Below are positions 2,677 through 32,787 of a DNA stretch of 64,000 nucleotides, one piece after another; position 1 is the stretch's first letter; every line of letters starts with the position of its first letter. Position numbers and translations under genes: made by a program. Source of the stretch: Opitutales bacterium (lineage in GTDB: Bacteria > Verrucomicrobiota > Verrucomicrobiia > Opitutales > JABSRG01); NCBI GenBank assembly GCA_049599475.1, contig JBMYOQ010000008.1, positions 32,001-96,000 of the forward strand, in the 5' to 3' direction. The notes beneath the pieces were generated by a model. The model made no database searches. It saw only the letters and a list, made by a program, of their open reading frames with translations, and had not been told where the DNA came from.

Positions 2677-2806
2677 GAAATAATTCTCATACTTTGTTTA
2701 CAATTTAGTGTTTCTGCATAAACATTGAATCCCCCGACGAGCTATCGGCAAATGGAATATGCTGATTCTCGCGGTTCTTACTCGGCTGTCACAGAAGATC
2801 TCATAC

Positions 2807-3811
2807 ATGCCTTACTCACCTGACCCGGAACTAGCCTCCTTTATCCAGTCGATTCCTAAGACCGAAACGCATTTGCATGTCGAAGGCTCGATGCCTTGGC
2901 AATTGCTCCAAGAAATCGATCCCGAGCTATACACCGAGCCGCCTCCGGGATGGGCAGACGATTTTAAGTATAAGTCTTTTAGGGAATTTGAGGACTATAT
3001 CATTGAGCACACAGGTAAATGGTTCACGAGTGCCGAGCGTTACCACAAGGCGGCGAAGGGTATTTTCCAGCATTGTGCTGATTCGAACGTGAAATACGTG
3101 GAGACCTCATTCCATTCTGGAATTGTTGCATGGGCGGGAATCCCAGGACGTGAGATTGTGGATGCTATTTTGGAAGCAGTGCCTGAAGGAATCGAGGCTC
3201 ATGTCTACATGGGGATGCTTCGCCTCGATCAGACGCCTGAGGTTGTCCAAGTATTGGAAGATGCGCTCTCCTGGGAACGCCTCAAGGGAATCGATTTACA
3301 TGGTCCGGAAGAACCCCCAATTCAAGATTGGACGCCTAAGTATTTTGAGCGTGCAGCAGGTCTCGGTAAGAGATTGAAAGCGCATGCCGGAGAGTTTGGG
3401 CCTTCGGAATGGGTAACGGATGCCCTGGACAAACTGAAAGTAAAGCGTATCCAGCATGGGGTGCGGTCCATTGAAGATCCGGCAGTAGTCCAGCGCTTGG
3501 TAGAGGAGAATATCACTTTGGATGTATGTCCTATCAGTAACATCAAGCTCGATGTCTTTGATAAAATGAGCGATCATCCCATAAGAAAGCTTTCACAGGC
3601 TGGAGTGAGCTGTACATTGAATACGGATGATCCATTTATTTTTGGTAACTCTCTCAACGAGGAGTATGCAGCGGTCGCAATGGAGCTAGGTTGCACTCAT
3701 AAAGAGCTCATTCAGTTTGCTCGAAATGGCTGGGACTTGGCTGAATGCAGCCCTGCAATGAAGTCCGAGAATATGGCTGAGTTGGATCGCTTAGAAGCAG
3801 GTCTCTCCTAG
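2807..3811 (+). CDS. Adenosine/adenine deaminase family protein
   Basis: PKTETHLHVEG, AHAGE, RIQHG, VCPISN and NTDDP metal/catalytic motifs. ATG at 2807 preferred over 2759. Confidence 0.92.
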   Translation: MPYSPDPELASFIQSIPKTETHLHVEGSMPWQLLQEIDPELYTEPPPGWADDFKYKSFREFEDYIIEHTGKWFTSAERYHKAAKGIFQHCADSNVKYVETSFHSGIVAWAGIPGREIVDAILEAVPEGIEAHVYMGMLRLDQTPEVVQVLEDALSWERLKGIDLHGPEEPPIQDWTPKYFERAAGLGKRLKAHAGEFGPSEWVTDALDKLKVKRIQHGVRSIEDPAVVQRLVEENITLDVCPISNIKLDVFDKMSDHPIRKLSQAGVSCTLNTDDPFIFGNSLNEEYAAVAMELGCTHKELIQFARNGWDLAECSPAMKSENMAELDRLEAGLS

Positions 3812-5652
3812 GCGGAAATCGTATCTCTGCGTTTGGGCTTAAGATATCTAGAAAGCTGTATCTTAAGCTCTTCTAACTGGAGAGGTTTTGTCAGAAAGGC
3901 ATCGACCCCGGCGAGCAAGGCATGCTGGCGATCCTCGGTAAATGCGTTTGCGGTAAGGAACACGACGGGTGTTTCAGCAATTTCCGGCGTTTCTCGAATC
4001 ATCCGGGTAGCCGTGAGGCCGTCCATGACTGGCATTTGCATATCCATAAGAACCAGGTCTGGTTTCAGCTCTATTGTCCGCTCTACGCCTTCTTCCCCAT
4101 TGTTGGCTAGGTGAATTTTTAGACCCAATTTCTCGAATACGACTGATATGAGCTTTTGATTTAGAATCCCGTCTTCGACAACTAAGACTACGCTGTCGGG
4201 GTCTAGTTCAAGGTCGAGTTCGGCGCTCATAGCTCGTTTGATTTCATCGATTTCGGGCTCAGAAATTTCAGTAGAAGGGAGAATAAGGGTGAATGTAGAG
4301 CCAAACCCAATTGCGCTTTGCACTGTGATGTCGCCCCCCATCAGCTTCGCTAGTTCTTTGGAAATTGCTAAACCTAAGCCAGTCCCACCAAATCTGCGGG
4401 TGGTATCGCTTTCGGCCTGTTCAAAGGCATTGAAAATGGACCATAGCTTATCATTCGGGATACCTATACCTTCGTCTTCAATAGCAATGTAGAATTGGTC
4501 ACCTCTTACACTTGCTCTAATGCGAATAGAGGTATCTGGTTCCGTAAACTTGAGCGCATTACCAACCAGGTTTGTGAGAATTTGATTGAGCCGCGTTGAG
4601 TCTGTTTTCTGATACCGCGGAAAATCGGGGTCGATGATTAGCTCGATTTGTTTTCCCTTTTGCTTAGCTGTGGCTGAGTAGACGTTGTGGAACTCTTCGA
4701 GTTGCTTAATGATATCGATAGGTCGTGTTTCGATGTCCAGTTTCTGTGACTCGATTTTCGACCAATCCAAGACGCTTTCGATCAGGCTCGAGAGTTGTTC
4801 ACCGGCCCCTTTGATATTTTGAAGATACTCTTCTATGATCACTGGGGAGTTCGTGTTTTTGGGGTCGGTCGCTAGCTTTGAAAAGCCCAGCATCGCATTC
4901 AAGGGGGTACGTATCTCGTGGCTCATGGATGCAAGAAAACGCGATTTGGCCTGGGCGTTCCGCTTTGCCAATTGTCCTTGAATTTCGGCGTCTCTCCGCG
5001 CGTTCATTGAAATGTATAGCACGATAGCGAGAACAATGATGGTGCCAGCTAAAACAATTGTGGTTGTGCCAACCGCGTGACGTGATTTTGCGAGTTGTTC
5101 TAGGGCTTGTTCACGTTTCTCACCCACATAACGGTGATACTGTTGATTCGTCTTGAGGGCGAAGGCTGCAGTGTCTTCAAGGATGCGGGTCACTTTTTCG
5201 ATGATCTCCTCAGTTGCCGATTCATCGCCGTCTTCTGCGGCAAGGATAATTGGCTGGAGTTCATTCAGCTGCTCAGAGATTTTCCATAGTTCGTCAGTCG
5301 AATCCAGCGCTACGGCGAGTTCTTGGTAGGAGTCTCCCTGTTTTAGGAGATCGACGCGGCTGAGAGCCACCTCGTAGCGCAGGCCTAGGTCTGAATAAAA
5401 AGGTGGGTCCTTAACTTCTGAAAGTGCAGTAATCTTTAACTTGGCAATTTCACTGTGAAGTTGGTGGACATTCCAAGATACGTTTTCTCGCGCTTCTCTG
5501 GAATCGTCGATGTGAACGCTAAGATTTTGTAGGATAGGGTGGATGTAACCTGTGTATGCGGCAGTCGTGGCTGCGATAACGGCCGTTAGGTAAATTAAAA
5601 AAACGAATTTTGCTCTAAAATCCTTCCGTTTCTTACTACCTGCGGGGGTCAT
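3808..5652 (-). CDS. Membrane hybrid sensor histidine kinase (periplasmic sensor, HisKA, HATPase, REC)
   Basis: Two TM segments, H-box FLASMSHEIRTPLN, NLVGNALKFT, DEGIG, GGTGLGL and a C-terminal receiver (LVLMDMQMP...FLTKP). Confidence 0.95.
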   Translation of the reverse strand: MTPAGSKKRKDFRAKFVFLIYLTAVIAATTAAYTGYIHPILQNLSVHIDDSREARENVSWNVHQLHSEIAKLKITALSEVKDPPFYSDLGLRYEVALSRVDLLKQGDSYQELAVALDSTDELWKISEQLNELQPIILAAEDGDESATEEIIEKVTRILEDTAAFALKTNQQYHRYVGEKREQALEQLAKSRHAVGTTTIVLAGTIIVLAIVLYISMNARRDAEIQGQLAKRNAQAKSRFLASMSHEIRTPLNAMLGFSKLATDPKNTNSPVIIEEYLQNIKGAGEQLSSLIESVLDWSKIESQKLDIETRPIDIIKQLEEFHNVYSATAKQKGKQIELIIDPDFPRYQKTDSTRLNQILTNLVGNALKFTEPDTSIRIRASVRGDQFYIAIEDEGIGIPNDKLWSIFNAFEQAESDTTRRFGGTGLGLAISKELAKLMGGDITVQSAIGFGSTFTLILPSTEISEPEIDEIKRAMSAELDLELDPDSVVLVVEDGILNQKLISVVFEKLGLKIHLANNGEEGVERTIELKPDLVLMDMQMPVMDGLTATRMIRETPEIAETPVVFLTANAFTEDRQHALLAGVDAFLTKPLQLEELKIQLSRYLKPKRRDTISA

Positions 5653-5655
5653 CCT

Positions 5656-6177
5656 CTACTCGATGGTAAGTGTCTTTACCTGCCAGACTGACCGAGAATA
5701 GTAGAGCTCCTTGCGTAGAGTCGGGTCGGTACTAAGTGGGTATGTTATAAAGATGGGGCCCATCTCTCTGACAGGCATGGGTTTGTCGACAAGGTCTATG
5801 GCCAAGACTATCGGGAATTTGTAAGCGTCGGAGACTGGAATAGATGTGTGATAATCGTTGTAAGCGACGGCTTTGATATTGTCTCCCTTCGCTTTCAGAA
5901 AATGTAAAACGTCGCGGAGTAAAGGGCCTGATTGGACGCGCTCGCGGTCGAACCATGGTTTCTTAATCTCAACTGTGTGCTGAGGGAATGTCTTGAGCTG
6001 CTCATAGCTCATGTAGGCGGTCTTGCCGTCGGAAGTGATTTCGATGTCCCCCGAGACTTGTAGAATTGGGCGAGTGTCGGGTCTCGGGATGCGCCCGGTT
6101 TCGGGGTCTAGTGTCGGTTGAGCGCACAACGACCCCAGAAACATCATGAACATTAACGGGAAAATATAGGTCTTCAT
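5656..6177 (-). CDS. Exported SUOX/molybdopterin-oxidoreductase-fold protein, PruR-like putative pterin-binding protein
   Basis: Signal peptide (LGSLCA|Q) and motifs PW..GPLLRDVL, A.NDY...IP, M.VREMGP...YP and RSVWQV. Lies 3 nt upstream of the kinase. Confidence 0.75.
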   Translation of the reverse strand: MKTYIFPLMFMMFLGSLCAQPTLDPETGRIPRPDTRPILQVSGDIEITSDGKTAYMSYEQLKTFPQHTVEIKKPWFDRERVQSGPLLRDVLHFLKAKGDNIKAVAYNDYHTSIPVSDAYKFPIVLAIDLVDKPMPVREMGPIFITYPLSTDPTLRKELYYSRSVWQVKTLTIE

Positions 6178-6503: not shown

Positions 6504-7292
6504 TCACGCTGTGCTGGGTTTAAGGCTCCAACAGACATGTCCTTCGGCATCCCAATTCAAAACCCATTTTGAGTCGAAAAGCCGTGCCATGGCTGTGACC
6601 TCTACCCAGCATTGAGCGGTCGGGTGCCAGTGCTTGTCCGAATCATTGAGGAGGGCATGGCGTAATTGTGGGGATTGTATCCCTAGGAGGCGTTCAGGAA
6701 CCTCTAGCTTACTGGAATATATGGACACGCCGTAAGGGTAGTGGCCTGCAGACACTTCGATATGGAAGGGCACGTCGAAAGGGCTTACACGATGGAGGTC
6801 CCTTAAAATGCAGAGAATGGAGTGACGCAGCATGCTGGCATCCCATTGCGGTGAAGGATTAACTGAATTTTCATTGAGGATCACAATATTCCGATAGCCC
6901 AGGAGCCGTTGATCTTTCACATACTCGACCAGTCCACCTACCAACTCCGATATCGGGCATGGCGCAATGATGGGCGACGAGAGGTGATTCAGGCATTCGC
7001 GAAACGAAGCGAGGCGATCGATCAAGTCCTTCGCTTTGCGGGCTTCATCCTGCAGACTGTTAATGATCTTCGGGCTAGGAGGGGTTTTGTTATTGGGCGC
7101 TCGATTTTGCTCCAGATCTAAGAACATGCGCATAGATGCCACAGGGCTGCTTAAATCGTGAGCTATATGCCCAAGAAGAGTGCCCCAGTCTTCTACCTGG
7201 TTAAGGATTGAAGACAATCTGTGGAAAGTCTCCTCATTGGGGTCGTTCTCGGATGGATCTCTCATAGATGTGTAACTGGACGGTGCGTCCAA
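6504..7292 (-). CDS. HisKA-containing degenerate histidine kinase / possible phosphotransferase
   Basis: H-box IAHDLSSPVASM is present. No recognisable N, G1 or G2 ATP-binding boxes. Confidence 0.6.
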   Translation of the reverse strand: MDAPSSYTSMRDPSENDPNEETFHRLSSILNQVEDWGTLLGHIAHDLSSPVASMRMFLDLEQNRAPNNKTPPSPKIINSLQDEARKAKDLIDRLASFRECLNHLSSPIIAPCPISELVGGLVEYVKDQRLLGYRNIVILNENSVNPSPQWDASMLRHSILCILRDLHRVSPFDVPFHIEVSAGHYPYGVSIYSSKLEVPERLLGIQSPQLRHALLNDSDKHWHPTAQCWVEVTAMARLFDSKWVLNWDAEGHVCWSLKPSTA

Positions 7293-7389
7293 TTGCGTCT
7301 CGTGTTTGACTGCAAAGGACTCACAGTTAATTCGTCATTATCATCTCATAAATGAGCCAACACCTTCGATGATCTTCATTTTCAAGCCT

Positions 7390-8283
7390 ATGCGACGCAC
7401 AATTCTTCTTTTCGGCCTCTTTTTAACCGGTATTCTCACCGCAGACGACACCCCTCGCACGGCCATTATCGCGGCATTCCCGGGAGAAATGGAAAGTATC
7501 CGGCGGGTTTTGGAAGGTGAGACCGTCATGAAGACCGTTACGATAAACGGCGTAGACTTCGAGCTTGGGGAAGTGTACGGGCAGCCTGTGGTCTTTTTCA
7601 TGACCCGTGTGAGTATGACAAATGCAGCCATGCACACTCAGCTGCTCTTATCAAATTTCAATATCGAGCGCATCCTGTTCTCCGGAATTGCTGGAGGGAT
7701 CGATCCTGCGATGAAGAAAGGCGATGTGTCCGTTCCGAAGGATTGGATCCATTATATGAAGGGCTCATTTTATAACCCCCATCCCGAGGAGGAGGGCGCC
7801 TTCGTGGTCCCGTCCTGGCGTGAGAAACCCGAGTTTTCAAATTTTGGAATGATGCACCCCGCGCGTGTCCAAGCATTGCGTGACGGCGTGGAGGAGCCTG
7901 AAAGCAAAATAAAATTCCCGGCAGACCCTGAGCTGTTGAAGCTAGCCGAGAGCGCCTTGAAGGATCACGAAATTGTCAATGCGACGGGAAAAGAGGCACT
8001 GATTCGCTTTGGTGGAGTGGGTGTCTCGGGGCCAATTTTCATGGATAACCGTGAATATCGAGAATACCTCTTTGAGACTTGGGATACAGAAGTACTGGAC
8101 ATGGAATCAACGGCGATAGCCCACGTCGCTTGGTCCAATGGTGTACCGTGCCTGATTGTCCGCTCGATCAGTGATTTGGCCGGGGGCCAAGAAGGGCATA
8201 ATGAGATTTACGAATTCGCTGGTCTGGCTCAGGACAACGCTGCGAAGGTTCTGGATGCTGTCCTGAAAGCCCTCGCGAAGTAA
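7390..8283 (+). CDS. 5'-methylthioadenosine/S-adenosylhomocysteine nucleosidase with signal peptide
   Basis: AIIAAFPGEM, ILFSGIAGG, LDMESTAIAHVA and IVRSISDLAG. The ATG at 7390 gives MRRTILLFGLFLTGILTA. Confidence 0.88.
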   Translation: MRRTILLFGLFLTGILTADDTPRTAIIAAFPGEMESIRRVLEGETVMKTVTINGVDFELGEVYGQPVVFFMTRVSMTNAAMHTQLLLSNFNIERILFSGIAGGIDPAMKKGDVSVPKDWIHYMKGSFYNPHPEEEGAFVVPSWREKPEFSNFGMMHPARVQALRDGVEEPESKIKFPADPELLKLAESALKDHEIVNATGKEALIRFGGVGVSGPIFMDNREYREYLFETWDTEVLDMESTAIAHVAWSNGVPCLIVRSISDLAGGQEGHNEIYEFAGLAQDNAAKVLDAVLKALAK

Positions 8284-14246: not shown

Positions 14247-17200
14247 TTAACGGCGCTCTGAGATGATCACCGTGGTCTCACGTTCACCGTGTTCGACCAG
14301 CAGGGATATTGGCAGCCCGTGAGACGGAACGGTTGATGCGTTTAATCTCGATTCCAGGTGATCATACTGCAACCAATCTGGAAGTTGAGAACCATCGGCG
14401 ACACGTAATCCGATCTGCGGTTGATTCTTGAGTCCCTCGGGCAGTTCGAACGAAAACCCGTGGCCTGAGGTGGAGGTTCCGCTTGGTAATGTGATTACGA
14501 TAAGTCCGTCCGTGATTTCTGTAGTTCTCGTAACGAACTGAGTGGATACATCTTCGAAGTGCGTGTAGGGACTGATGATGGACGCTGTCGTCGTTTCTTG
14601 TATTGTAAAAGTATAGTTGCCGAGATCTGCACCTGAATATGCATATGTGAGGTTTACTGTTTTGTCGGAGCCGACCATCGCGTCCTCAAACATTCCAGTC
14701 ACGGAGTAATTCACGGTATCTCCGCTGAGAATTCCTGAGAAGGTGACACCGTTTGTATTCAGCGATGCATCCAGAGTTCCGTCATAAATTTTATCGTTTG
14801 CGGTGATGCCACTAATGGAAACGCTGGCGGGGGTAATGTCGGCAGTAAAGCCCGAAGGTTGGACTAGAGTGTAGTTCCCCGCGTCAGTGCCGCTCAGAGT
14901 GTATCCGTTGACCGTAACGGGTTTTCCATTACCTACATTTTTGTCGGAAAAGGTTGCGGAGCCGGAGTTGTTGAAGCTTACATTATCACCACTGAAGACT
15001 CCGGAGAGAGTTGCACTTGCGGTATCTAGAGTCGCTGCAGTGTTCGCGTCGTAAACTTTGTCGTTTGCTGTAATGCCGACGATGGAAACGCTGGCGGGAG
15101 TAATGTCGGCAATCAGGCCCGAAGGTTGTGCGAGGGTGTAGTTTCCTGCGTCGACGCCGCTTAGGGTGTAGCCGCCGACAGTTACGGATTTTTCAGCGCC
15201 TACATTCTTGTCGGCAAATGTTGCAGACTCGGTGTTGTTTAGACTTACAGTATCTCCGCTTAAAATTCCGGAAAGAGTGGCGCCTGAGGTATCTAGGGTC
15301 GCCGTAGTGTTAGCGTCGTAAACTTTGTCATTTGCCGTTATGCCGCTAATGGATACTGTGACGGGCGTAATATCGGCGCTTAGGCCCGAAGGTTGGGCAA
15401 GAGAATAGTTTCCCGCGTCGGCGCCGCTTATCGAATACCCACTGACTGTAACGGATTTTCCGTCGCCGACATTTTTGTCTGAAAAAGCGGCCGTCCCGGT
15501 TCCGTTTAAGTTCACGATGTCCCCACTTAAAGTGGATATCGATGCAGTGCCGGAAAGCGAAGCGTCTGTTGTGGTGTCGTAGACTTTGTCAATTGCCGAA
15601 AGGCCCGTAACGGTTAGCGCGTATGGGTTTACCGTCAGCGACCCGTTGCTCAAGGCCCCTACGGTATACCCAAGGTCGGGTAGGGTGCTAGCTGTAACGG
15701 AATACGTGCCTACTTCAAGTCGAGCGGAAGTAGAATATGTCGCGCCATTCACAGTCATGGTGACACCGCTGTCTCCATTTACGATCGTTCCGACTGAGGC
15801 TGTGAAGGCAGGTATGGTGTCTCCATAAGTAATCGTCTCGGAGGATATGCTTCCTGAAAGATTTATTTGCTCACGATAAATGGCATTGTTGCCTGCGCTC
15901 AGCGCTGCTGTGTAGTTACTCACCGATTCGTCGGAGTTATACCGAAACCGCCCGCTGCCAGAACCGATGAAATCGGTGAGGCCCGTCGATCCAGAAACGC
16001 TACCAGAATACAGAGTGGCACGCCCTCCACTGCCCATAGATATCGTGGGTGATCCGCTAATGTTCAAATCTCCTCCTGTAGATGTTCCGGCGGATTCGTC
16101 TAAACCGGCATTTAGAGTGACTGCGCTGGTCGTATTGTCTGTAGTGGAAATGTCCTGACTTAATGTTAAGTCTCCAGAGCGCGTGGCTATGTTTATTGTT
16201 CCTGTAGAGCTCAAGCCGTTTGTGCTTCCGATCGAGCCGATCTCGACTGCGTTGGAATCAATGTAGAGTAGGCTGTCTACACCGTTCGCTGCCAAAGTGG
16301 AAACGTTGCCGCTGGCGTTATCCAGACTGATGGCCCCATCGAGCAGCGCGAGGTTCTCTGCGACTACGTAACCGCCAGCTCCGTCGGTAACGTTTCCTGC
16401 ACCAGTCAGGGTAATTGTATCGTTCGTAGCGGTTAAGGCTGAATTGATGGTGATATCGTCGCCAATTATGTTTATTGGACCGGAGACTGTGATATCTGAA
16501 GAGAGAACAATGTCTGATGTATTACCTGCTTTACCCAAAGTGAGCCCGGACGCATCGGTAGATATATCATAGTCGTTTGATTGCCAGGTGAGTGTTCCGC
16601 TAAAACTTGCGCTCACAGGCTCTATAGTGACCGTGCCGCTTGTATTGAATTCGAACCCACCTCCTGAATCGAAAGAGAAATTGTCGGCTTGGATATTAAT
16701 ATTGCTGGTGCTCGCTGTGACATCTGTCCCGGCTCGATAACCAATAAAAAAATCATCATCGTACGGTTGTAGCGGTCCACCGCCATTTGCGAGGAAATCA
16801 ATATCACCGCTTGCGGCTAATATGTGTGCATTCTCTTGAAATCCGAGATCACGATCATCCCCGGAACCGCTAATGGAAATACTTCCCGTTCCGGTTGCTT
16901 GAATGGTGCCTGTGCGACCGAAACCTACCGCGAAATTTAACCCGATATTTTCGATGAAAGCACCCCCATTAGAAATTCCTGAAAGGGTAATATCTCCATC
17001 TTGTGTTCGAATCATTGTGTCCGCTACACCTCCCGGTCCGTAGCTGATGATGACTCCGTTGGCGAACCAACCATTCGACCCCTGGCCTTCCATGGTAATA
17101 TCTCCTGACGTGCCGGCATCGATCGTGATACCTTCGAAGGTGTGGATACCGGAGGATTCGTCATCAGACGCGTCGCCGACTGTGGAGTTTCCGCGCATCG

Positions 17201-19673
17201 TAATATCTCCTCCGCCTGAATAGATGGTGACGAAGGCTCCTGTTTGGTCAGTCCCCAATTGGACCGCTCCAGCAATGTCGTTGACGTTTTTGAGAGCGGA
17301 GCCTGTCGGCGCTGTTGTTCCTGCGCTGCCCCCTCCGAGGATGATATCTCCTCCTCCAGATGCCGTGCTGGTATTGGAGCCACTGCGATCTGAAGCTGTG
17401 CGGCTATCGAGAGATGTTGTGCTTTGCAGATACACATATCCACCTGCGTCGTCGAAATTGGCCCAAAGTGTGATATCACCCGCATTGGTTGCGATGTTAG
17501 AATTCGTCGATACAATTACATCGTCTGCCGCTTTGAGTCGAACTCCGGCGCCTGAGTTCGACGTCGTTAAATCGTCGTCGACAGTGATATCTCCGCCATA
17601 AATGCTGAGGCTTCCAGCTATATCGATGGCACTACTTAGAGTGACGTCGACATTTGTGGCACTGCTGTCACTTCCTATGGCGAGGCCGAGAGTGTCGCTT
17701 ATTCTTAATCCATCGAAGGTGCCAGATCCGCTGGTTGAAGAATAATAACCACCGGATTCGGTGCTATCCCAGGTGACCGCCGCGGTGAAGTTGTCTTCGA
17801 AGGGGGCTATCGTAAGGGTCCCTGTGCCGTCGATTTGAATAATCTCAGTGGCGTTTTGGAAATCGAAGAAAATTGTATCGGTGATCAAATCTACATCCCC
17901 TGACCCTGCGTCTACGCTCGCGACGCCTTCAAAGGCTGAAATACCCGTATCATTTATGCCGACCTCGCCTGTCGTACCAACTATTCTGAGGTCACCTCCT
18001 CCAGTTGTGATGCTAGAACCTCCGCCGAGCTCCACGCCGATGAGGTTTGATTCTCCTCCCATGGCAGCGCCTGCGCCTACGGTATGCCCATTCCAAGTGC
18101 CTGTGAGCTGACCTCCACCAATCCACATGTCGCCTCCATTAGTATCCACATTAGAGTCGACGATGACTCCGTTTCCAGACCCTGTGAAGCCTGCGGCTCG
18201 GTCAACTTCGGAAACCAAGATTAGGTTGAGTTCACCGCTTGAAGATGAAATATCTCCGCCTAATTCCAAGCTGAGAAGTCCGGTTGAAGATAACGTTAGG
18301 GTGCGTTCGTTTGCTCCCGTATATTCGATGGGATCATAGACCTCGAGTGTGTAATTGGCGCCGGTACCCGTAGTGATCGCGACATTACTAGAAGCGAGTG
18401 CAGTCTCGATCGATTCCGTTGTATTGGTGGCGACTTCGATAACGTTACTGGCGTCTGAGATGATTACGTCTCCTGGGTCGAGCAGCCAGTTTCCCGCGCT
18501 CCCATCGCTTGCTAATGTGGATACGAAGACATCGTTTACATGTAAAGTGCGTCCCGAGGTTTCTACCGCTCCGCCACGGCCTCCCTGTGCTCCGCCTTCG
18601 GCTATGATCGATCCATCGACCGTAGTCACCGAGGATTCATTGGTGATATCCGACCAAAGAACAATGGTCCCTCCGTTGCCCTGTTCGATCGCACTTGCGT
18701 CAATACGTGCGTCCGCAGCCATATCTACGGTGGTTGCTTGATACATGCTGCCTCTGCCTTGCCAATCACCGCCAATGAGGATTTCTCCGCCACCGGTTTT
18801 ACCACGTGCTTCAATAATTGAGCTGGATGCCAAGTTGATATCATCGCCTTCGAGGAAAATGCGGCCTCCTTTATTTACGAGATTGCTGGCGTTGATTTCA
18901 CCGCTATTATTTACGATACCTCCACGCAGCTCGTTTACCGCGGTAGCTGAAAGGATTACCGTACCGCCCGATGTGATGATAGCATTTCTGTTTTCTACCA
19001 AAGTTTCGATCTGGCTTTGCGTAGTCGTTACATCGAGAAGAGATAAGTTGTCTCCGAAGTTCAGGCTTATCTTTTCGCCTGAGGCGAGTGCGACCGTACC
19101 CATATCTGATGTGATTACGCCGGAGTTTACGACCTCAGGCGCGAGCAACGCGATATAGCCGCCTTGGTCGGCGTTTAGACTGCCTTCGTTTACAACGCTT
19201 CCCGTAGCATCTCCGCGGTAAAAGGTGCTTTTACCTTCCAAGAAATCTTCGGCCGAAATGTGGTGCGTTGTTGCCACCAGGCCACCCACATGAACGCGCG
19301 AACCTGGAGAAAAGTAGATCCCCTCAGGATTCGTTAGAAATATCTGTCCATTGGACTCGATATTTCCGAATATTTGACTCGAACTGTCTCCGAATACCCG
19401 ATTCAAAGTGACACTCGTGTTTGATGGTTGGTTAAAGAAAACCTGTGCGTCGCTTCCGATATTAAAGCTACTCCAATCTATAGAAGCGCGGTTGCTCGAT
19501 TGGTCTATGTCCATCCGAGCACCATTGCTCCTAATGTCTGCCTGTCCACCTACAACATTCCCGCCGGAAGGGAGTTGGTTCGGGGCTGGGATTTCCTGTC
19601 CGAGGGAGGTGTATTGAAAATTTGATACTCCAAAGAGCAGAGTGACGCAGTGTAATAAAGGTTTCTTCATCAT
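14247..19673 (-). CDS. Filamentous haemagglutinin-family TpsA exoprotein with YDG repeats
   Basis: N-terminal secretion domain (LPSGGNVVGG, IDWSSFNIG, LNRV, NGQIFLTNPEG), GG.VETSG/WLLDP motifs, beta-helix low-complexity body and KVYD repeats. Confidence 0.93.
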   Translation of the reverse strand: MMKKPLLHCVTLLFGVSNFQYTSLGQEIPAPNQLPSGGNVVGGQADIRSNGARMDIDQSSNRASIDWSSFNIGSDAQVFFNQPSNTSVTLNRVFGDSSSQIFGNIESNGQIFLTNPEGIYFSPGSRVHVGGLVATTHHISAEDFLEGKSTFYRGDATGSVVNEGSLNADQGGYIALLAPEVVNSGVITSDMGTVALASGEKISLNFGDNLSLLDVTTTQSQIETLVENRNAIITSGGTVILSATAVNELRGGIVNNSGEINASNLVNKGGRIFLEGDDINLASSSIIEARGKTGGGEILIGGDWQGRGSMYQATTVDMAADARIDASAIEQGNGGTIVLWSDITNESSVTTVDGSIIAEGGAQGGRGGAVETSGRTLHVNDVFVSTLASDGSAGNWLLDPGDVIISDASNVIEVATNTTESIETALASSNVAITTGTGANYTLEVYDPIEYTGANERTLTLSSTGLLSLELGGDISSSSGELNLILVSEVDRAAGFTGSGNGVIVDSNVDTNGGDMWIGGGQLTGTWNGHTVGAGAAMGGESNLIGVELGGGSSITTGGGDLRIVGTTGEVGINDTGISAFEGVASVDAGSGDVDLITDTIFFDFQNATEIIQIDGTGTLTIAPFEDNFTAAVTWDSTESGGYYSSTSGSGTFDGLRISDTLGLAIGSDSSATNVDVTLSSAIDIAGSLSIYGGDITVDDDLTTSNSGAGVRLKAADDVIVSTNSNIATNAGDITLWANFDDAGGYVYLQSTTSLDSRTASDRSGSNTSTASGGGDIILGGGSAGTTAPTGSALKNVNDIAGAVQLGTDQTGAFVTIYSGGGDITMRGNSTVGDASDDESSGIHTFEGITIDAGTSGDITMEGQGSNGWFANGVIISYGPGGVADTMIRTQDGDITLSGISNGGAFIENIGLNFAVGFGRTGTIQATGTGSISISGSGDDRDLGFQENAHILAASGDIDFLANGGGPLQPYDDDFFIGYRAGTDVTASTSNINIQADNFSFDSGGGFEFNTSGTVTIEPVSASFSGTLTWQSNDYDISTDASGLTLGKAGNTSDIVLSSDITVSGPINIIGDDITINSALTATNDTITLTGAGNVTDGAGGYVVAENLALLDGAISLDNASGNVSTLAANGVDSLLYIDSNAVEIGSIGSTNGLSSTGTINIATRSGDLTLSQDISTTDNTTSAVTLNAGLDESAGTSTGGDLNISGSPTISMGSGGRATLYSGSVSGSTGLTDFIGSGSGRFRYNSDESVSNYTAALSAGNNAIYREQINLSGSISSETITYGDTIPAFTASVGTIVNGDSGVTMTVNGATYSTSARLEVGTYSVTASTLPDLGYTVGALSNGSLTVNPYALTVTGLSAIDKVYDTTTDASLSGTASISTLSGDIVNLNGTGTAAFSDKNVGDGKSVTVSGYSISGADAGNYSLAQPSGLSADITPVTVSISGITANDKVYDANTTATLDTSGATLSGILSGDTVSLNNTESATFADKNVGAEKSVTVGGYTLSGVDAGNYTLAQPSGLIADITPASVSIVGITANDKVYDANTAATLDTASATLSGVFSGDNVSFNNSGSATFSDKNVGNGKPVTVNGYTLSGTDAGNYTLVQPSGFTADITPASVSISGITANDKIYDGTLDASLNTNGVTFSGILSGDTVNYSVTGMFEDAMVGSDKTVNLTYAYSGADLGNYTFTIQETTTASIISPYTHFEDVSTQFVTRTTEITDGLIVITLPSGTSTSGHGFSFELPEGLKNQPQIGLRVADGSQLPDWLQYDHLESRLNASTVPSHGLPISLLVEHGERETTVIISERR
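14580..15630 (-). repeat. About four tandem YDG-type repeats (period 267 nt / 89 aa) in TpsA
   Basis: Homologous DNA blocks at about 14821, 15088 and 15355 encode ITPASVSI.GITANDKVYD...F.DKNVG..K.VTV.GY.LSG.DAGNY.L.QPSG. Confidence 0.85.
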
Positions 19674-31806: not shown

Positions 31807-32787
31807 ATGGAATTCGCAAAAAAATATCCTGTTTTTTTGTCAATCTGCGTGTTGTCAGCAGTGATGCTGGTGTCAGGGATCGTATTGACATTTATGACAC
31901 TTGGTAAGGTGTCAAAAGCTGAGTCGAGTGTGCAAAGAGCTAAGAATCAGTTTAATGCACTTCAATCTGGTAGCCCGTCTCCGGTTTCGGAGAACATCCA
32001 GGCATTGGATACGAACATTGCAAATCTGAGTGATTCGCTTACGAGTGCTCTTTCTCGCCTCGAAGCGACGCGCCCGTTCGTCTTGGCTGAGGACGCAGAT
32101 GTGCTGCTCCCGACTATCGTGAAATACATTCGTGATTTCCGAACCCGGGCAGCTGCAAATGAGTTTGTGATTGTTAAGCAAGACGAGGCATTTGGCTTCT
32201 CAACTTATGAGAAAGACGTGCCGCCACCTGCGCGTGAAAAGGTCCCTCTTGTGGATAAGCAGCGCCAGATTCTGACCTATGTCGTTCAGCGCCTATTTGA
32301 CTCTGCTCAAGTAGGTGAGGCTATCGAAGTCGTGTCGGTTTCACGTGAATACGTAGAAGTCGAAGAAGATCCTACTGCGAACACAAACAATCGCAGAGCA
32401 ACGACCTATGATGATCAGTTTGAGGTGGATCCCGCTGTAACGGCCCGTGTGGATGGTGCCGTGGATACGCTTGCTTTTGAAATCGTGTTCAGCGGATACA
32501 CCGAGTCACTTCGACGATTCATCGAATCTTTGTCTCAATTTGAGCTCCCTGTTGTGATAAGAAGCGTAGAGGTTGAGCGAAAGCAAGTTGAGGAGAGTAG
32601 AAGCTCATCAAGCCGCAGCAGCTCGGCGCGCAGCACCTTGGAAGATCTGTTTGGTGTCAGTGGAAATAGCAGCGATGCTGACGAAAGCGCGACCACCACG
32701 GTCTCCGAGCGCAAACCGATCGTAGACCAAAACGAAAGTATTTTCACCATCGTCGTGGAATACGTAGAAGTATCGATTCAACCCTAA
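31807..32787 (+). CDS. Amuc_1100-like pilus-associated (PilO-like) protein
   Basis: N-terminal TM, coiled coil, FGFSTYE..PP and FEIVFSG....LRRFI..L.....PVVIRSVEVER. Third position in the cluster. Confidence 0.7.
   Translation: MEFAKKYPVFLSICVLSAVMLVSGIVLTFMTLGKVSKAESSVQRAKNQFNALQSGSPSPVSENIQALDTNIANLSDSLTSALSRLEATRPFVLAEDADVLLPTIVKYIRDFRTRAAANEFVIVKQDEAFGFSTYEKDVPPPAREKVPLVDKQRQILTYVVQRLFDSAQVGEAIEVVSVSREYVEVEEDPTANTNNRRATTYDDQFEVDPAVTARVDGAVDTLAFEIVFSGYTESLRRFIESLSQFELPVVIRSVEVERKQVEESRSSSSRSSSARSTLEDLFGVSGNSSDADESATTTVSERKPIVDQNESIFTIVVEYVEVSIQP

Follow-up and report, generated by a model that had tools for sequence, protein, structure and literature searches.

The DNA analysed here (the window) is a stretch of 64,000 nucleotides (nt) from an Opitutales bacterium (Verrucomicrobiota), positions 32,001 to 96,000 of contig JBMYOQ010000008.1 in assembly GCA_049599475.1. 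Two genes on its minus strand encode a small, probably exported protein, PruR, and a hybrid histidine kinase with a periplasmic sensor of the DcpA type. The pair is a genuine member of the PruR-DTB class, a name given in a survey by Greenwich et al. 2024 (PMC11194511) to PruR paired with a TorS/BaeS-like kinase that has a DcpA-type sensor; the architecture was already known, and what is new is the phylum-level range and the genomic context. The features of the pair are as follows (residue numbers refer to the respective protein; aa, amino acids).

5656..6177, minus strand: PruR-type periplasmic pterin-binding protein, 173 aa (phmmer against the Protein Data Bank (PDB), AlphaFold2 model, Foldseek).
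6121..6177, minus strand: predicted Sec signal peptide, residues 1-19 (read from the sequence and hydropathy; probable cleavage before Q20-P21).
5953..5958, minus strand: P74-W75, with Trp replacing the Cys that ligates the molybdenum cofactor (Moco), equivalent to 69PW70 of Agrobacterium tumefaciens (7kos alignment; W in 83 of 83 rows).
5851..5859, minus strand: N107-D108-Y109, pocket Asn and Tyr, equivalent to A. tumefaciens N102 and Y104 (N in 82 and Y in 81 of 83 rows).
5683..5685, minus strand: W165, second aromatic residue of the pterin sandwich, equivalent to A. tumefaciens W160 (W in 83 of 83 rows).
3808..5652, minus strand: DTB-type hybrid histidine kinase, 614 aa, with the order transmembrane segment, DcpA-type sensor, transmembrane segment, HisKA, HATPase, REC (Pfam, NCBIfam, motif positions).
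5077..5535, minus strand: periplasmic DcpA-type sensor, residues 40-192, predicted all-helical bundle (profile tests, alignment, BLASTP, model).
5449..5475, minus strand: W60-x7-E68 signature of the sensor (WNVHQLHSE, residues 60-68; of the 89 other sensors in the alignment, 70 keep W and 87 keep E).

When the 173-aa open reading frame was compared with the PDB by phmmer, four sequences matched at E ≤ 1 and every one of them was a PruR. The best match was A. tumefaciens PruR (7kos, E 5.5e-32), and 7rkb matched with an E of 1.5e-28. A model of residues 20-173, made with AlphaFold2 from an 83-row alignment, had a pLDDT (per-residue model confidence) of 95. In Foldseek this model superposed on 7kos with a template modelling (TM) score of 0.89-0.94 and a root mean square deviation of 1.4-1.5 Å, at about 41% identity in the structural alignment. 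PruR chains occupied ranks 1-7 (query TM 0.75-0.89); sulfite oxidases and YedY followed at a query TM of about 0.6. The structure comparison, run as a check on the PruR identity proposed in a preliminary description of this DNA, thus confirmed at the level of sequence and model that the product of 5656..6177 is PruR.

The residues by which the family is defined in PMC11194511 (69PW70 at the position of the Moco Cys, and the pocket residues N102, Y104 and W160) all have their counterparts here, so that the pocket is identical to that of A. tumefaciens PruR; the SVWQ motif lies at residues 163-166, and the length of 173 aa agrees with the roughly 170 aa of the family. The N-terminus is basic and then hydrophobic, with a likely cleavage site and with neither a twin-arginine motif nor a lipobox, and the xQP junction without Cys is common to PruR orthologs. 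The only Cys of the protein is residue 18, within the predicted signal peptide, which leaves a mature part of 154 aa. The preliminary description had spoken of an exported SUOX-fold protein of about 173 aa with NDY and C-terminal RSVWQ motifs and no Cys in its mature part, and every one of these motifs was located, the export being read from the sequence. By analogy with the solved orthologs 7rkb and 7kp2, the protein would bind a pterin other than Moco.

It is scarcely credible that the small protein is instead a Moco-dependent enzyme of the MsrP/SUOX type, or a Moco carrier, with the kinase merely as its regulator. It does share the SUOX fold with MsrP/YedY and the Moco domains of sulfite oxidases, it gives a weak PF00174 match that stays under the cut-off, and MoaC is encoded in the genome; because of this MoaC, an argument against the enzyme at the level of the genome failed. 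However, the protein is shorter than those enzymes, PruR structures fit it far better than SUOX or YedY, and it has PW in place of the Mo-ligating Cys; it has no Cys after residue 18 and no twin-arginine motif, it is not predicted to be an enzyme, and this alternative was rejected on sequence. Moreover, two other genomes that carry the pair (G441 and G664) gave no MoaC match.

In the 614-aa kinase Pfam detected HisKA (residues 235-302), HATPase_c (351-461) and REC (489-597); the periplasmic part gave no Pfam match, and PAS and Hpt domains were absent. The catalytic and phosphoacceptor motifs are intact (H245, the N, G1 and G2 boxes, D537, T567 and K589). The best NCBIfam matches were TorS/BarA-like and under their cut-offs (for TorS, 310 bits against a cut-off of 676). 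Two hydrophobic segments, found in 19-residue windows beginning at residues 12-17 and 192-201, enclose about 155 aa; the DcpA-type domain of the PruR-DTB class has about 140-150 aa. Besides the W-x7-E signature this periplasmic part contains RYEVALSR at residues 92-99, of which R92 is kept in 80 and R99 in 87 of the 89 other sensors; a further W-x7-E at 123-131 is off the conserved position. Both motifs of the sensor, and the two membrane segments of the kinase, were as the preliminary description had given them.

Sensor profiles were built from proteobacterial PruR partners only, one from four GGDEF-type DcpA sensors and one from 79 kinase-type DTB sensors. The sensor scored 25.5 bits against the first (best of 200 shuffles 4.2) and 43.5 bits against the second (best of 200 shuffles 9.7). 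BLASTP aligned it with BLM14_RS27540, one of the four members of the DcpA profile and a PruR-DcpA entry in Dataset S1 of PMC11194511, at 20 of 56 identities (E 4e-5) spanning the W-x7-E and R-Y-E helices. These comparisons, run because a relationship to the DcpA sensor had been proposed, support by sequence the assignment of the periplasmic domain as a DcpA-type sensor. The model of the sensor is all-helical (pLDDT 91); when searched against the PDB with Foldseek, it gave nothing at E ≤ 0.001, only weak matches to 4-helix chemoreceptor domains, and no solved DcpA-like sensor was found. A representative search with HMMER returned 2,323 relatives of the sensor.

The two genes share a strand, with pruR upstream and only 3 nt between them (TAG-AGG-ATG), the spacing noted in the preliminary description. 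In what follows, G000 is the host genome (4.68 Mb, 96.6% complete, one PruR copy), G001 a genome of the same genus and G003 one of the same family. The gap between the genes is 4 nt in G001; in both genomes the kinase stop overlaps a convergent gene of the adenosine-deaminase family by 4 nt. Modelling of the pair, another of the checks suggested earlier, gave a complex score of 0.75 for PruR with the sensor and of 0.01 for the best of three controls; the mark set for this score is attained by solved pairs in 116 of 157 cases and by mismatched pairs in 2 of 215, figures that apply only approximately with custom alignments. At least 91% of the contacts recur between model runs, and the pLDDT of the partners is at least 89. 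On the side of PruR the modelled interface consists of residues 73-77, 106-107, 135-139 and 165-166, which form the pterin cleft; on the side of the sensor it consists of residues 64-71 and 91-109, including E68, all modelled without ligand. PruR thus likely contacts the sensor, to judge from the model, through the face that bears its pterin cleft.

In PMC11194511 the kinases of the PruR-DTB class frequently have a receiver domain, and the class makes up 23% (Results) or about 29% (Discussion) of 5,595 pairs; the class is repeated in a review (PMC13259868). The coupling to a phosphorelay instead of cyclic di-GMP (c-di-GMP), which the preliminary description had regarded as novel, is therefore already published, forms with a receiver domain included. 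No DTB system is known to have been tested experimentally. The present pair shares with the published ones (e.g. SPO_RS00830-00835 of Ruegeria pomeroyi) a PruR, here with predicted export, followed by a DcpA-type sensor kinase with two transmembrane segments and WX7E (PMC11194511). It differs from them in that its kinase has no PAS domain, in that no cognate response regulator is adjacent, in that no canonical FolB, FolK or FolP, PruA-like reductase or canonical GGDEF enzyme was detected in the genome, and in its host, an order absent from Dataset S1.

The survey covered all public bacterial assemblies under an iterative 60% identity rule and reported Proteobacteria alone; no Verrucomicrobiota or Planctomycetota appear in the supplements of PMC11194511, nor any of six other phylum names in Dataset S1. 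We found no literature report of a PruR and kinase pair in Verrucomicrobiota, a phylum for which the preliminary description likewise knew of none, although the network of bacterial and archaeal PruR-like proteins in PMC13259868 may hold some. Compared with PruA-PruR-DcpA of A. tumefaciens, the sensor domain is homologous, whereas the output is a His-Asp relay instead of a diguanylate cyclase/phosphodiesterase and the genome yielded no PruA homologue with TGX3RXG. Pfam detected no GGDEF or EAL output domain in the kinase, which sets it apart from the PruR-DcpA (c-di-GMP) type. In TorT-TorS and similar systems, an analogy drawn in PMC11194511, a separate periplasmic binder also governs a membrane hybrid kinase; the folds of the binders are unrelated, however, and the present kinase scores below the TorS cut-off and lacks an Hpt domain.

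A hybrid kinase without Hpt domain needs a separate relay partner. G000 has six Hpt matches, one of them stand-alone, with a receiver and genes of apparent anti-sigma/STAS-like type as its neighbours. A further candidate is encoded upstream of the pair and in the same orientation:

6504..7292, minus strand: protein of 262 aa whose H45 resembles the HisKA His and in which no ATPase domain could be recognised (Pfam, HisKA only); below, the DHp (dimerisation and histidine phosphotransfer) protein.

Its sequence is 84-87% identical in G001 and 53% in G003, and among 151 order genomes it occurs in G000, G001 and G003 only, all of which bear PruR. As a protein with DHp only it presumably resembles the ChpT-like transferases, and by this analogy it is a possible phosphotransferase of a small Opitutales clade. 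A role as fixed third part of the pair is unsupported: in G003 the gene abuts a REC-HDOD-pilC cluster, apart from PruR. The only GGDEF match in G000 is degenerate (31.9 bits), an ABC-ATPase fusion without GG[DE]EF motif (G000:C37:2092-3414), and no EAL search was made; c-di-GMP synthesis is an unlikely output.

The pair lies on a contig of 109 kb, and the GC content of its genes is 48-50%, against 50.5% for the genome. PilC on the same contig is 80% identical to PilC of G003, which is labelled Opitutales, and the kinase of G001 is identical to a protein labelled Verrucomicrobiota by NCBI. The assignment in the preliminary description to a probable verrucomicrobium is in keeping with these labels. 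Within the family 3 of 7 genomes gave a PruR, and within the order 7 of 401; of 401 genomes sampled across the phylum, G000 itself was the only one (0 of the 400 others), with up to eight candidates scored per genome; a system common to all Verrucomicrobiota was rejected on these counts. Intact pairs with W-x7-E hybrid kinases occur once each in G000, G441 and G664 and twice in G001; the pair is also present in a third Verrucomicrobiota-labelled record. In G478 the kinase is broken up by insertion sequences and has F in place of W (F-x7-E); in G003 PruR is present and its partner is truncated by the contig end. A divergent PruR match without partner in G617, on a 3.4-kb contig with 66% GC, was set aside as a probable contaminant. 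The best 80 named loci all belong to Pseudomonadota, mostly Burkholderiales, and by a motif screen their partners are 76 kinases, one GGDEF protein and three unclassified proteins.

Several of these loci showed particulars of their own. The additional G001 pair (L097:6625-9037) is 48% identical and lies between smc and uppP. At the corresponding place in G000 the contigs C50 and C136 both end in an identical 7-nt tandem repeat; because both ends enter the same repeat, direct adjacency of smc and uppP is likelier than a hidden second copy. In G664 (L093:5691-8125) and G441 (L095:5694-7951) the PruR belongs to a common divergent subtype, marked by NG[YF] and a terminal WM, and the sensors likewise form a subtype of their own. 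The G478 pair (L092:7716-14237) adjoins carAB, and its contig also bears the native rpoB; we take these carAB genes to look alphaproteobacterial. In a plasmid collection 614 records contained PruR-like genes; 380 of these plasmids are predicted to be conjugative, and many are from enterobacteria, which points to a mobile family.

Could the pair be a decaying or misbinned proteobacterial cassette without function in its host? The distribution is highly patchy, G478 and G617 provide a split kinase and a probable contaminant, and a promoter and terminator scan at the locus yielded no clear signal above shuffles. Against this stand the 109-kb contig with its Opitutales-like PilC and matching GC content, the third Verrucomicrobiota-labelled record, and the conservation in G001, where the pair is syntenic and intact. 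Between G000 and G001 the proportion of nonsynonymous differences (pN) was 0.20-0.22 and that of synonymous differences (pS) 0.76-0.81 (saturated), which indicates purifying selection. We consider a functionless cassette very improbable.

For the history of the pair, a PruR tree was made from 31 of 103 rows; two short fragments and the partnerless divergent sequences L094 and L113 were left out. The G000 group formed one clade (100/99), sister to a mostly betaproteobacterial DTB clade (84/88, unstarred). On the free tree the Opitutales rows need four changes, and they formed a single clade in 0% of 200 bootstrap trees. The core of the kinase might have been exchanged for that of a native kinase; it is equally close, at about 42%, to its best native and its best proteobacterial match. 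In G003 the DHp gene directly follows REC-HDOD-pilC, whereas in G000 a block with an FMN reductase, the deaminase and the pair sits between pilC and the DHp gene. An ancient Opitutales system, inherited vertically and lost many times, would change this history and leave the mechanism as it is. One clade of all nine Opitutales-side PruR rows was not rejected (p-AU of 0.084 in the approximately unbiased test), and the placement is blurred because of long branches; the bootstrap trees, the four changes and the differing genomic contexts make vertical inheritance unlikely, if a serious alternative. An old transfer is the likeliest history, and the GC content of the pair in G000 is ameliorated.

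With regard to the ligand, FolE2, a GTP cyclohydrolase, was found above cut-off in G000, and a Nudix gene comes directly after it, as is also the case in G003 (L121:1408-2998 on G000:C2 and L120:743-2411 in G003, in a family without detected FolK or FolP). DHFR and MoaC were also found. A G000 without any pterin synthesis, as the missing FolE1 suggested, is ruled out by FolE2, since with this enzyme a pterin precursor can be made. Profile searches of G000 found no FolE1, FolB, FolK or QueD/PTPS, and none of the seven family genomes had FolP above cut-off. None of the 17 short-chain reductases of G000 carries TGX3RXG or has, among the models listed, a pteridine reductase as its best match. Of the candidate substitutes for FolK and FolP, the PF00809 match is a methionine synthase by sequence, and the MptE-like matches in G000 lie in frames of 335 and 615 aa, which may be Maf-like. 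A PTPS-FolE2-reductase operon was also dismissed, as G000 has no PTPS and the match in G664 lies within an apparent queC-queD-queE cluster. A non-canonical folate route may exist in G000. With FolB, FolK, FolP and pteridine reductase missing despite FolE2, the ligand may be external or an orphan dihydroneopterin.

The same pair with the same contact might respond to another flat heterocycle, such as a purine or nucleoside product, lumazine, a flavin fragment or a breakdown product of folate or Moco. The undetected enzymes (FolB, FolK, FolP, QueD and pteridine reductase) speak for such a ligand, as do the flanking genes for an adenosine-deaminase-family protein, an FMN reductase and a nucleosidase. 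In addition, a G001 ortholog (L096:3648-4187) has Asp for the pocket Asn (LDDY), and a swap at this position is tied to a possible change of ligand specificity in PMC13259868; its close relative P0003 retains Asn. However, every pocket residue of the G000 copy matches pterin-bound PruR, FolE2 is present, the flanking genes are not common to other Opitutales pairs, and the PruR of Vibrio cholerae, which has no PruA, was crystallised with neopterin (PMC13259868, PMC11194511). A non-pterin ligand is improbable.

FolK was absent from all six genomes with a sensor-paired PruR and present in 52 of 81 order genomes. At the family level the loss of FolK coincided with the pair with a chance of 0.013, a post hoc figure from incomplete genomes; an independent-pair test on a 29-row RpoB tree, with three supported pairs only, gave a median p of 1. 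When relatedness is taken into account, the association is no longer significant. More widely, FolK had no match in 15 of 41 Opitutales families sampled (about six changes on the RpoB tree); its absence from whole families suggests repeated loss of folate synthesis or another substitute. One may speculate that Opitutales without a folate pathway repeatedly acquired PruR-DTB, and with it read a pterin that does not stem from folate synthesis of their own: either one excreted by neighbouring microbes that make folate, a form of eavesdropping on vitamin donors, or a dihydroneopterin-type molecule made by the orphan FolE2 and the adjacent Nudix hydrolase, with an output independent of c-di-GMP. 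FolE2 occurs in six of the seven family genomes irrespective of PruR, which counts against this reading, and we hold it as a doubtful though possible one. If true, pterins would be sensed outside Proteobacteria as a cue between species or as a dedicated one.

Taken as a whole, we regard it as quite probable that the locus encodes a two-gene PruR-DTB sensing module in Opitutales, which an ancestor of the genus probably obtained from Proteobacteria and which selection has since maintained. PruR would be exported to the periplasm by Sec, as its N-terminus suggests; there Y109 and W165, together with N107, would bind a small unconjugated pterin and not Moco, the pterin lying between the two aromatic residues, as in the solved orthologs. 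Its pterin-cleft face would then dock on the sensor helices that bear E68 and E94-D101, as modelled. Docking would shift the kinase/phosphatase balance (H245 to D537), in either direction, and the phosphoryl group would leave via a separate Hpt or DHp protein to a response regulator. Some points weigh against this reading. The complex score expresses model confidence, PruR structures are public and no solved DcpA-like sensor was found; the sensor is just 12-24% identical to those of proteobacterial DTBs. As no reductase of the PruA/FolM type was found, it is not obvious where the tetrahydromonapterin of the Agrobacterium model would come from. Finally, because the proteobacterial sister grouping is unstarred at 84/88, donor and direction of the transfer are not established.

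Elsewhere in the window, the locus is flanked in both G000 and G001 by the adenosine-deaminase-family gene (2759-3811, plus strand) and by a gene for a nucleosidase with a hydrophobic N-terminus (7306-8283, plus strand). A gene at 14247-19673 (minus strand) encodes an 1808-aa protein with repeats that reads as a filamentous-haemagglutinin-like secreted adhesin.

The pair extends the PruR-DTB class to a phylum that is not listed in the 2024 survey (PMC11194511). The identity of the sensed pterin, its possible external origin and a link of DTB output to c-di-GMP are questions left open by the authors of that survey and of the review (PMC13259868). A compact copy without PAS domain, in a genome without detectable PruA, FolB, FolK, FolP or canonical GGDEF protein, offers a clean natural case for these questions.

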